The notes under the pieces were generated by a model. The model saw nothing but the letters and a program-made list of their open reading frames with translations, was not told where the DNA came from and ran no database searches. The position numbers and the translations under genes were made by a program. A stretch of 63,787 nt of DNA, counting the filler, from Collodictyon triciliatum (Eukaryota): the NCBI GenBank assembly GCA_043381765.1. It is 15 parts of 15 records of this genome, joined end to end, with 100 filler letters (N's around TTAATTAATTAA, not from the genome) between each part and the next. Parts side by side here need not be neighbours in the genome. Positions count along the whole stretch, not along the records: positions 7,290 to 11,629 come from JBHJMP010006215.1; 14 more parts are not named here. The stretch is one strand, 5' to 3'. This document shows, piece after piece, positions 7,290-11,888 of the stretch. Position 1 is the stretch's first letter. Each line of letters begins with the position of its first letter.

Positions 7290-7392
7290 TCTTCTCTTTT
7301 CTTCTCTTTTCTTCTCTTTTCTTCTCTTTTCTTCTCTTTTCTTCTCTTTTCTTCTCTTTTCTTCTCTTTTCTTCTCTTTTCTTCTCTTTTCT
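7290..7392. repeat. Microsatellite (CTTCTCTTTT)n; representative of simple repeats at most contig ends
   Basis: Others: (TTTTG)n ~11550-11629, (TTGTTTG)n ~11730-11875, (TTA)n ~15975-16069, (TTTTC)/(TTTC)n ~28090-28265, (TAC)n ~29288-29383, (ATTACT)n ~38356-38450, (ATCATCATT)n ~42791-42893, (GAGAGAAGA)n ~51661-51800, (TAA)n ~56095-56175, (T8G2)n ~63700-63787. Confidence 0.95.
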
Positions 7393-7558
7393 TTCCATTC
7401 ATTTGTTCTTCTCAGATTTTCTTTCTGAATCTATGAATCCTTAAGTTTGCCTATTTCCTTGTACGGATTATTCGACAATTCTGATTGATTGGATTTCATT
7501 CGCTCCTGATATTCTTTTCTTTATCTGATTGGTTCAAATATTGGCTCATTATGTACAG

Positions 7559-7948
7559 GTGTCTCTCACGCTCCAACTGCCACAACTTATTTTTCAACCC
7601 AGCGATGTGTATGAGTTCCAACACAGCCTCTCGGAGCCAAACTTTGTGACACAAAAAAGGGTGCACGGTGTGATAGTACACGAATCCCATGACATGAAGA
7701 CCAAGGAGCTTGAACGCACCATTGTATTTGTGCAGAGTGCTGACCCAGGTTGGGACTGGCTCTTTTCTCGAAACATCGCAGCACTTGTCACCATGTACGG
7801 CGGCCTCAACTCTCACATGGCCATCCGCGCGGCCGAACTTGGCCTCCCAGCAATAATCGGCTGCGGCCCAGTCTTGTTCAACACATGGAAAGCGCACAAA
7901 CGCATCGGCATTGACTGCTCCTCGAGAATAGTCACATTTTTGGAATAA
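7559..7948 (+). CDS. Terminal exon of an L-glutamine kinase (Cj1418-family)-like PEP-utilising enzyme; C-terminal phosphohistidine swivel domain
   Basis: Acceptor TACAG|GTG at 7558/7559 and stop TAA at 7946-7948. Translation LPQLIF...PNFVTQK...IVFVQSADPGWDWLFSRNIAALVTMYGGLNSHMAIRAAELGLPAIIGCG. The ADPGxDWLF and GGxNSHMAIR motifs are characteristic of the Cj1418 family rather than PPDK, PEP synthase or EI. Confidence 0.8.
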   Translation: MSLTLQLPQLIFQPSDVYEFQHSLSEPNFVTQKRVHGVIVHESHDMKTKELERTIVFVQSADPGWDWLFSRNIAALVTMYGGLNSHMAIRAAELGLPAIIGCGPVLFNTWKAHKRIGIDCSSRIVTFLE

Positions 7949-8493
7949 CACGTCAAAAGAGACTCCGCCAGAAAGGAAGAAAATAGCATCGCCGGATCGA
8001 TAAACTTGGATTATAGATATGGAAGATATGGGCTGTTGCTGGTGTGATTTGGTGATTGGTTGCGCGCTGTGATTTGTGATGTCCATGGAATTCATAGAAA
8101 TGAGCCTCTTGTGGAATAAAAGTATACGGTTAATTTACTCATATATGGAAAATATAATATATTTAGATGATCTGCCACATTTTAAAATATTTTCTAATTA
8201 ATAGTATAACCTATTGCACAGAACAGATATATTCATATTAATATATGAGAAAGAACACAATAAATTCGTGATAGCGAGGGAATAATAAAACAACCTCATT
8301 GCGACCCGTCTTTGTGGATCAGAAGCCACACTGATTTCAGTGGATCATTCAGCAAGCAATTGATCCACGGCCTCACCCGACAGGAGCAGACAAGAGAAGA
8401 GAAGAAAAGAAAAGGAAAAAAAAAATAAAAAAAAAAAAGGAGAAAAAAGAGAAAAAAAGGAAAAGAAAACAAAAGAAGGGGACTACATCGACC

Positions 8494-11289
8494 ATGGAAC
8501 CAACGCCCACGAATGCAAAAAGCTTTCCAACCCGGCAACTGCGACGCAAACCTGGTCTGTTCGACTCCATCCTCTGCTCTTTTTATTGTTTTTATTTTAT
8601 GTTTTTCACAAAAGTCCTTTTCTTTTCCTCTTTCCCCCTAATGTCGCACAAATCAAACCATTTTCTCCTTCAAACACAATGTTACCTTCGCCCCCACATA
8701 GCTTATTTATACCTCTGTCCCATGTATCATGCAGATCAGCTTCTCATATATGTAAACTATAAATTTATGATGTTGCACACATCCTTTGAATGCGTTTATT
8801 CATTTCCTTTTCGTTCCATTATATATATGCGATTTAGTGGCGGGTTCGTGGAGACCAGATTACCGTGAGGAGCTCGTTCGATGGAAAGCGCAACGCGTGA
8901 AGGAGGAGCAAAAATGGAAGAACGAAGTCTCTAACCTCCTGCGTCTGGAATGTATGTTCTCCACAGCCCGATGCACTATATCACATCTATCTTATCATAC
9001 ATTCGAGCGATTTGCTCTTGCTTACAAGGTTGTACACGATTTTTTTTTTATTGCCTGAAATATTACTGACAGTTTCTTTTTATTATATTATGCGTTCTTT
9101 TTTTTTTCTCATTATTGTAACTTCTGCTCATGTACATCACAAGGTCAAAAAAAATGAAAACAAAATGAAAAGAAAAAGCAGAAACAAAAAAATCAAATAA
9201 CAAATAACACAAAACAAAAAAAATACAAAGATAAAAATGAAAATGGAATTATAACTCCTTGACCAAACAAAAGGTTAGAAAGGGGGATACAGATGACTAC
9301 TAGCTCTTATATAATGAGTACAAAGTATTTAGTGAAATAATCTGTGTACAGGTCGAGCACCAGAAGATATATCCAGAGCCAACACCTCATCAAGCTCGAC
9401 AATTAGTTTACCTAAATCTGCTTCCATGAAAAGAGCAGGGTCTGGGTCGAAGGCCTATGCACATGTCAAAAGCTCAGGTTATTCTAATCAGCCAATATCA
9501 GGTGGAAGATTGAGTTCAAAATCACAACCACAATTACTGGATGGATTTTGTCTGGTAATATCGCATACTGTTTTAAAAAAAATCCCAATCTTAAATTTAT
9601 TTCTACTTCGTCTCCTTTTTAATTGTTTAATTATTTAATATTTCTTTTATTGCATGTTTCACGAAGCACATTGAGGGTGGGAATCGCTTATCCAAGATTG
9701 AACTCAAAGATATTAATATCAGTTATCTGTCTGCAAAGTTGACGACCCTGTTGATGCAGCTTCTTGCATCATCAATGAGAAGGATCTGACTCACGTGGAA
9801 GAGAACGACTTCAAGCTATTTACTTCGTTGGCTTATTTAGATCTGGGGGATAATCGGCTGCAGCTGCACATGCTTGGGGCATTTCCCAGCCTCCAAGAAC
9901 TTCACCTGTACTGTAACATGATTTCTGAGATTCAACCCCTCTCTGGTTTCTCGCAGCTACAGGTGAAAAACACACACAAACTATTTTCTTAACATTTACA
10001 TATAAACTTTAAATTGGGAAATAACTTTTCTTCAATTTTTTTCATTACCTGTCTTGTCTGTTCCAACATATGTGTTAAGTACTCTAATAATTCATATCCT
10101 ATTTTAAATCTGACTTTATATGACACAGTATCTGGACCTTTCATTCAACTTTATAAACCCCGATTATCTGATTCGCCTTGCAGACATCCCCCGACTTAAA
10201 GTGTTGGACCTGACAGGTATCAACAGTTTCATATGGTATCCTCTTTTCGAAGACCATGTCTTTGTATGATAACACACGTGAAGTCTATACACTAACTGAG
10301 ATTTATCGAAGGAAACGCACTGAAGTGGCTTCCTGCTGGAATGGAGGCTCTGGCACGACTGGAAAGACTTGTTCTGGAAGATAATCAAATGAATGATGTT
10401 GGAGTTCTTCTGGCTCTACAGAATATGCCCAGGTTTTGATTGTGGACCATTCTTTCATCTCACTTTCCGTTTTATCTTTTGTATTTTTACTCCACAAGCC
10501 GCAATTCATCAAGTAATGACTTATTTTTATATGACATCATTCGAACAGCTGTTAAGAGGCATCCAAAAATATGCACAAATTAATTTTTGATCTCACAATT
10601 AAGGCTGAAAGAGCTCGACTTGTCTGACAATCAATTCACTGGATTCCCAGCAATAGAGGAAACAGGATTTCCAGCACTTGAATTCATTAATTTATCGACA
10701 AATATGATAAAAGACGAGGTTTTTTTTTCCCCTCAGAGAAATAGCTGTAATTTTTTTGAATCGGTTGTTCTCGATAGTCCATATTCGATTTATATATTTG
10801 AGTAATTATTTATTCCTTTTGTCTCCAAATAAATTGACACTGAATATCAATTGATTATATTGACGGGCTGAAATTTTAAGACTTACATAAATATACTAGG
10901 ACCAGCTTATCACTCTTTCCCAGGTTCCAAATGTCCAGGAAGTTCTGATATGGAATAACCCTCTCGTAAACAAATCCAGAGGAGAAAAACGTAAATGCAA
11001 CTTTGCAAGAATTACGTGTTATATTCCATAGATATTCTGAATTTATTACAGCCTCATGTACAAAAGTTTGACCTATCCTTTTCATCATTACAGTTTCGAT
11101 ATTTATATCATAATCATGTGATCGAGGAATAGTTAGTCATTAATTTAATATCCCCATACCTCCTCCTTAGCATTTCTTAACAAGCTACGACGAACTTTGG
11201 TCGATGAATTGGGCATTTACGTGATGATTGAGCCCCCACCCACTATGAAGTCCGCCCCAATCATTTTTGATCCAAACTCAATGGCTAAG
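8494..11289 (+). CDS. XRRA1: XRRA1-like leucine-rich repeat protein (multi-exon, 3' truncated)
   Basis: N-terminal SFPTRQLRR, then LLDGFCL / VEENDFKLFTSLAYLDLGDNRL...FPSLQELHLYCN / VLDLSFN...IPRLKVLDLT / GNALKWLP / LKELDLSDN...GFPALEFINLSTN / EVLIWNNPL across GT-AG exons. Motif order matches XRRA1 as recalled. Confidence 0.75.
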
Positions 11290-11888
11290 GTATACCACTT
11301 ATATTTATTTAGTGCAAATATTTGTCGCACATATGCTTCTCTTACGAAAATAATCCTTTTTTTTTTTTGCTGATGCTTATATTATGTTCACTATTTTACA
11401 TTTTTATTCTGTCTTTTCGTTTTCGTTTTCGTTTTCTGTTTTCTGTTTTCTGTTTTCTGTTTCTGTTTCTGTTTCTTCTATTTTCTATTGTTTTTTTAAT
11501 TTTTTGTTTTGTTTCTCTTTTTTTATATTTTCTATTGTTTTTTTTTAATTTTTTGTTTTGTTTTGTTTTGTTTTGTTTTGTTTTGTTTTGTTTTGTTTTG
11601 TTTTGTTTTGTTTTGTTTTGTTTTGTTTTNNNNNNNNNNNNNNNNNNNNNNNNNNNNNNNNNNNNNNNNNNNNTTAATTAATTAANNNNNNNNNNNNNNN
11701 NNNNNNNNNNNNNNNNNNNNNNNNNNNNNGTTGTTTGTTGTTTGTTGTTTGTTGTTTGTTGTTTGTTGTTTGTTGTTTGTTGTTTGTTGTTTGTTGTTTG
11801 TTGTTTGTTGTTTGTTGTTTGTTGTTTTTTGTTGTTTGTTGTTGTTGTTGTTGTTTGTTGTTTGTTGTTGTTGTTGGAACAATCACAG

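Follow-up and report, generated by a model that had tools for sequence, protein, structure and literature searches.

Cj1418, the L-glutamine kinase of Campylobacter jejuni (EC 2.7.3.13), acts through a pyrophosphoryl-enzyme and ends in a phosphohistidine domain with the motif GG-x-NSHMAIR. The PF00391 domain is common to PEP synthase, pyruvate phosphate dikinase, rifamycin phosphotransferase and PTS enzyme I, all of which except enzyme I also contain PPDK_N. Review articles describe L-glutamine kinase as the first known case of an enzyme that directly phosphorylates the nitrogen of an amide, and O-methyl phosphoramidate as known only from Campylobacter. Outside bacteria, a preprint places a Cj1418/1417/1416 module within an MeOPN-like cluster of a Borg, an archaeal extrachromosomal element, and proposes a role for it in surface glycoconjugates (bioRxiv 10.1101/2024.11.05.622173); as described there, that cluster is archaeal, clustered and intronless, unlike the protist gene reported here. 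A full-text literature search whose reach excluded most subscription journals listed no paper on eukaryotic or giant-virus members of the family.

Here, we analyze an exon in the protist Collodictyon triciliatum that encodes the same C-terminal GG-x-NSHMAIR phosphohistidine domain as Cj1418 and belongs to the same family by profile. We favor, with a probability of about 0.75, the reading that positions 7559–7948 are the last exon of a nuclear gene with spliceosomal introns, whose product belongs to the L-glutamine kinase family and which was acquired horizontally from a lineage near the giant-virus fusion genes, gaining at least one intron later. An expressed, intron-bearing eukaryotic member, or the giant-virus fusions described below, would extend amide-phosphorylation chemistry beyond prokaryotes, and both would supply new enzymes to assay. 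As the evidence stands, the case adds another horizontal transfer to those known in protists, the enzyme in question being an unusual one.

The exon lies on an unplaced contig of 4,340 bases (7290–11629) within the window, by which we mean the whole 63,787-nucleotide stretch of DNA that was analyzed. On the plus strand, an open frame of 139 codons runs from 7529 to a TAA at 7946–7948, and its translation is the peptide quoted in the preliminary description. Family homology begins at 7556–7559, and the terminal coding exon itself spans 7559–7948 (+; phase 0, 129 codons plus TAA), encoding a swivelling phosphohistidine (PEP-utiliser mobile) domain as judged by PF00391, NF004508, alignment to a complete protist protein (P0002, below) and a transcript-like contig from public reads (the X10 contig, below). 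Immediately upstream is the 3’ end of the last intron (7394–7558, +), an AT-rich segment that ends in TGTACAG, with the CAG acceptor at 7556–7558 and an in-frame stop upstream of it at 7526–7528. G+C content is 33% in the flank (7400–7558) versus 51% in the exon, and the TGTACAG acceptor context is common to the kinase intron and intron 2 of an adjoining leucine-rich-repeat gene. All 129 codons are open and every invariant family residue is retained. The CAC codon at 7814–7816 (+) specifies the conserved histidine (H809 in P0002) within GG-x-NSHMAIR that is presumed to accept the phosphate; this histidine and its flanks (G-G-x-N-S-H-M-x-I-R) are invariant in both family alignments, and it is presumably the residue that is phosphorylated in Cj1418. 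By homology, the whole enzyme would move phosphate from ATP onto this residue.

At the 5’ edge of the contig, inside the last kinase intron, sits a perfect microsatellite, (TCTTCTCTTT)x10.4 (7290–7393, +; 100% matches, score 208), which is the likely reason that the assembly breaks at this point; no similar repeat was found at the other contig edges of the window. Because the contig edge falls in this microsatellite, the visibility of a single kinase domain is an effect of the assembly, and only the final 269 bases of the last intron are contained in the contig. A tblastn search of the window with seven full-length relatives recovered only 7556–7945 (all else E ≥0.22), and the remaining kinase exons, for the ATP-grasp and central domains, are to be expected beyond the edge, on a different contig. 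The preliminary description had proposed a CAG acceptor after a microsatellite intron, with only the last domain of the enzyme visible. The repeat is real, the X10 contig departs from the genomic DNA exactly at 7558|7559, and only 7559–7948 matches the family, for which the contig end is the cause.

We determined the family of the exon by profile comparison. It matches the mobile phosphohistidine domain of Pfam (PF00391) with an E value of 1.3e-15 and NCBIfam NF004508 (PRK05849) with 7.2e-52, residues 10–138 of the open frame aligning to positions 661–788 of the 789 in the profile. The NF004508 score is 176.4 bits, to be read against a cut-off of 501 bits set for the whole protein, which a fragment of 129 residues out of ~790–850 cannot reach. 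Among the 26 families matched, the runner-up reaches 37.2 bits, with PEP synthase at 34.7, rifamycin phosphotransferase at 30.5, pyruvate phosphate dikinase at 24.0 and PTS enzyme I at 16.3 bits; these generic PEP-utiliser scores of 16–37 bits stand against cut-offs of 342–999 bits, so that the exon falls outside each of those families. In the Protein Data Bank, only chains named as PEP synthase match the exon, at E values of 1.7e-7 or weaker. Several members of the NF004508 family are named ‘glutamine kinase’ by JGI. We connected NF004508 to Cj1418 indirectly, with Campylobacterales genomes standing in for the Cj1418 sequence: eight of 151 such genomes, and none of 14 control genomes, contain a protein above the cut-off, and the highest scores (up to 1,106 bits) occur in Campylobacterales. 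The profile results, together with trees that have PEP-synthase-like outgroups, place the exon inside the Cj1418-type family and support its identification as a member of the L-glutamine kinase family (EC 2.7.3.13), as had been suspected from the motif string of its C-terminal phosphohistidine domain.

The prokaryotic kinase is closely tied to partner genes. In all eight Campylobacterales genomes the genes run kinase, amidotransferase-like, nucleotidyltransferase-like, which is the order of cj1418c–cj1416c. In 62 bacterial loci, each 12 kb or longer, an amidotransferase-like domain is found within 8 kb of the kinase in 58, a nucleotidyltransferase-like one in 60 and an APS-kinase-like one in 55, with all three partner domains near the kinase in 49; all four genes are consecutive in the best metagenome locus (L002). 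Natural fusions also exist, combining the kinase either with a nucleotidyltransferase and a gamma-glutamyl-CDP-amidate-hydrolase-like domain (NF045546, 117.8 bits, below the cut-off of 250) or with an APS-kinase-like domain (NF004041, 132.2 bits; cut-off 127). One of the eight Campylobacterales kinases (L168, from G036:C10) has a frame of 1,017 residues with ~230 extra at its N-terminus and the lowest of the eight scores (841 bits).

The closest relative of the exon is a complete 852-residue protein of another protist, Diphylleia rotans (P0002, EukProt), which is 71% identical to it over 129 residues (723–851) with no gaps. P0002 scores 852 bits against NF004508 (cut-off 501) and contains the ATP-grasp (PPDK_N) and central domains. 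It shares with the Cj1418 type the same layout of ATP-grasp and mobile domains and about the same ends, starting where the bacterial proteins start, and differs by a ~45-residue insertion after the ATP-grasp motif. Unlike Cj1418, the protist gene is nuclear and intron-bearing, and it is without adjacent partner genes on its 4.3-kb contig.

Searches for further relatives set this pair apart. Of 709 longer candidate proteins, 338 match the exon, with P0002 the best and all others at or below 58% identity among the matches listed; of 57 short candidates, 46 match, none above 61% identity and none sourced from a eukaryote. With P0002 as the query, 2,648 of 8,000 scored candidates match, the best other protein reaching 46% identity among the 120 listed, and none of those 120 is a further eukaryote-sourced relative. 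Metagenome contigs yielded 522 relatives, of which 80 were kept; none exceeds 57% identity, and none comes from the window’s organism or a close relative of it. The Protein Atlas clusters for P0002 are bacterial only. A stand-alone, insertion-rich protein of 935 residues from a Logan assembly (P0026) falls in a nine-row clade with the eukaryotic pair and fusion proteins, and its source could be another eukaryote or a virus. The kinase family also occurs in two metagenome-assembled bins (L116 and L130) of the Holosporaceae, which are intracellular bacteria of protists; in the trees L116 lies at some distance from the eukaryotic pair.

To place the exon we built trees of 71, 74, 46, 28 and 36 rows, with PEP-synthase-like proteins of Campylobacterales, which are distant from the kinase family, as the outgroup. 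The family separates from the outgroups with support of 98–100 and stem lengths of 2.35 to 5. In the 71-row tree bacterial sequences surround a clade of the exon and P0002 (SH-aLRT 100), and a careful LG+G4 tree of 28 rows recovers the pair with support of 100/97 and joins it to P0093, L173 and P0114 in a five-row set with support of 100/99. The grouping of the pair with viral and metagenomic fusions has an SH-aLRT of 99 both under LG+G4 (quick) and under a C20 mixture (quick search, 46 rows), and a nine-row set with P0026, P0032 and P0094 added is likewise supported at 99 (LG+G4 quick). A one-residue gap upstream of the DWNPAEIIG motif, found in 15 bacterial rows, is absent from P0002 and from all four fusion rows. 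Many of the tree rows have deviant composition, and a tree in which the pair instead joins five bacterial rows survives the AU test (lnL difference 24.2, p 0.148). The nearest kinase relatives thus appear to be triple fusions in giant-virus bins and metagenome contigs as opposed to ordinary bacterial genes, an indication that is not decisive given the AU result for a bacterial sister. The nesting of the pair among prokaryotic and viral sequences is as expected of transfer, in keeping with the horizontal acquisition put forward in the preliminary description, and the branching order makes a virus-linked origin of the protist kinase likely. Horizontal transfer would have brought the gene into an ancestor shared by this organism and Diphylleia rotans, from a donor lineage near the fused amidotransferase-nucleotidyltransferase-kinase genes of the giant-virus bins, and at least one intron would have been gained after the transfer. 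A tryptophan in the sequence ADPG-W was considered as a clade marker and rejected, since it is present in 22 of 363 motif carriers, bacteria among them, and W was over-represented in the hit lists through bias.

The fusions themselves came from a scan of viral contigs (IMG/VR), in which two giant-virus bins contain full-length kinase relatives. In each, a single open frame encodes an amidotransferase, a nucleotidyltransferase and, as its last third, the kinase: 1,273 residues at L173:6582–10403 and 1,160 residues at L174:6684–10166. These and the related proteins P0093, P0114 and P0280–P0286 form the nearest tree branch to the protist pair, and they differ from it in architecture, being intronless single frames of 1,157–1,301 residues situated in glycan islands, while the protist proteins are stand-alone kinases. 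The genes surrounding L173 and L174 include glycosyltransferases (Glyco_transf_15 among them), TOD1/MUCI70, sugar epimerases, LicD, a sulfotransferase, a PHO4 phosphate transporter and eukaryote-type nucleotide-sugar transporters. Matches to NCLDV capsid and VLTF3 occur in each bin, on contigs other than the kinase contigs, so it is binning and local gene content that assign the kinase genes to viruses. An APS-kinase-like (Cj1415-like) match is found in neither of the two bins. Searching the viral contigs with P0002 alone gave no match, and searching them with the clade alignment gave four loci, none beyond those already recovered. The L173 and L174 fusions may constitute a phosphoramidate module in giant viruses.

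Partner genes are where the pathway proposed in the preliminary description is weakest. No sequence resembling Cj1415, Cj1416 or Cj1417 was found in the window, whose 64 kb of unrelated contigs is too little to show absence. The partner half of P0093, compared with 1.84 billion representatives, gave 11,185 matches, and none of the 20 clusters examined is eukaryote-sourced; these 20 comprise 17 of the 150 partner matches listed and three kinase-clade proteins, too few to show absence. In this eukaryote, glutamine as the substrate, the catalytic mechanism and any phosphoramidate pathway downstream are open inferences, as are the direction and vector of the transfer. As a tentative and rather doubtful extension, a protist lineage including this organism and Diphylleia rotans, together with some giant viruses, might place P-N groups derived from L-glutamine phosphate on surface or virion glycans, the protist gene then being a domesticated piece of a giant-virus triple fusion. 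If true, a chemistry so far described in review only for Campylobacter capsules would also run in eukaryotic cells and viruses.

These same observations bear on the strongest alternative, in which the protein is a true member of the family that acts alone or in another pathway, phosphorylating some other amide or amine acceptor or making phosphoglutamine unrelated to glycan phosphoramidate, with no Cj1415–Cj1417-like partners. We consider this unlikely, if well short of negligible. P0002 stands alone, in contrast to the partner fusions of its nearest relatives, none of the 20 clusters yielded a eukaryote-sourced partner, and the lack of the APS-kinase-like fourth enzyme from both giant-virus bins indicates that the module is variable. 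By contrast, the prokaryotic kinase is nearly always beside its partners (in the 58, 60 and 55 of 62 loci given above), the two eukaryotic proteins show high conservation in their phosphohistidine domain, and the partner search spanned less than a whole eukaryotic genome or transcriptome, which makes its blank weak.

Four public runs were aligned to 7400–11629; eight runs matched (shares 0.05–0.14), none of them listed as RNA, and we took X1 and X10 to be RNA by guess, with which the splice joints in X1 agree. A 915-base contig from X10 aligns over its bases 521–915 to positions 7559–7953 with 98% identity (eight differences), and the 520 bases ahead of these fail to match the genomic DNA upstream of 7559. 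The last ten codons before the exon align ungapped to residues 714–723 of P0002, in the frame of the exon and with five of ten identical, a comparison that judges the upstream register on the last 30 of the 520 bases and that comes from a related organism, X10 not being the best match to the window. The contig thus leaves the genome at 7558|7559 and continues upstream in frame and in register, which supports both the CAG acceptor and a spliced transcript; with coding sequence replacing the AT-rich flank, the gene is eukaryotic and spliced, as first proposed. From this one contig of a related organism, we infer an intact upstream part of the kinase in the window’s organism as well. Of the eight differences between the X10 contig and the exon, five are synonymous and three non-synonymous (L to I, H to Q and K to N), against ~1.8 synonymous changes expected (one-sided binomial p 0.018), and pN/pS is 0.18. 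X1, the best match to the adjoining gene, does not cover the kinase exon. Positions 7400–7540, 7964–8104 and 10784–11629 are uncovered in the four runs, save for a depth of 1.27 in X2 at 10925–11065.

This evidence makes decay improbable, by which the exon would be what is left of an acquisition that was truncated or became a pseudogene and has no functional product. Such a remnant would be consistent with the presence of the last exon alone, on a short unplaced contig ending in a repeat, and with its lack of transcript cover in the best-matching run. However, the open frame and its full set of invariant residues, the in-frame and in-register continuation of the relative’s contig, the bias of its differences to synonymous sites and the existence of a complete 852-residue orthologue all argue against it.

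The gene next to the kinase is itself spliced. A multi-intron leucine-rich-repeat gene (8483–11629, +), identified from X1 transcript contigs and LRR_4 clusters, begins at ~8483–8495, ~535 bases past the kinase stop, and runs to the contig end. X1 contigs confirm exons at 8483–8553, 8837–8951, 9352–9554, 9724–9958, 10125–10214, 10310–10430 and 10602–10716 (+), connected by six joints with 0–2 differences: 8553>8837, 8951>9352, 9554>9724, 9958>10125, 10214>10310 and 10430>10602. Five of the six joints are GT..AG. The third, 9554–9724, was scored as GT..GT with one extra letter between its sides, and it is either a one-base alignment offset or a non-canonical intron; the joined frame is open except here, where the transcript has one additional letter, and the frame shift across 9554/9724 is as expected if one additional base is exonic. 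The preliminary description had placed a multi-intron XRRA1-like gene ~550 bp from the exon. The six spliced introns, the leucine-rich repeats and, at ~535 bases, the spacing stand, with XRRA1 a candidate label; the Protein Atlas clusters for this gene are generic leucine-rich-repeat. No read or contig spanning 7953–8483 was seen in the four runs, so the linkage between the kinase exon and the leucine-rich-repeat gene comes from the assembly alone.

Contamination from a bacterium or giant virus, or a chimeric assembly, could be imagined for a small unplaced contig that carries a member of an otherwise prokaryotic or viral family, has no read across 7953–8483 and sits among contigs ranging from 27% to 58% G+C per kilobase, but it is very improbable, because homology ends at a canonical acceptor after AT-rich non-coding DNA with an in-frame stop (7526–7528), the transcript-like X10 contig has coding sequence in place of the flank, the acceptor context equals that of the adjoining spliced gene, and the best bacterial identity is 58% among the matches listed versus 71% to the protist protein.

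The make-up of the window sets bounds on how its features can be read. It is a chain of unplaced contigs in order of falling length, from 4,340 to 4,333 bases, which 14 identical N44-TTAATTAATTAA-N44 linkers join at intervals of ~4.44 kb. The linker preceding the exon’s contig (7190–7289; N44, TTAATTAATTAA, N44) is one of these 14, a non-biological, artificial joint between two unplaced contigs. Joints run across the window from 2751 to 60527, and any feature that seems to cross one is an artefact. G+C varies per kilobase over the 27–58% range among the contigs, which accordingly may not all derive from one organism.

Two repeats accompany the leucine-rich-repeat gene. An A-rich low-complexity stretch at 9092–9373 lies in intron 2, and the summed depths at 9092–9232 are 1,762, 1,329, 1,012 and 38 in the four runs; this depth behaves as that of a common simple repeat and is not a sign of expression. 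Just 5’ of the point where transcript cover of the gene begins, at 8384–8479, is a purine-rich imperfect repeat (GAGAAGAAAA-like, ~95 bases), which is of the reverse-complement type of the microsatellite at 7290–7393.
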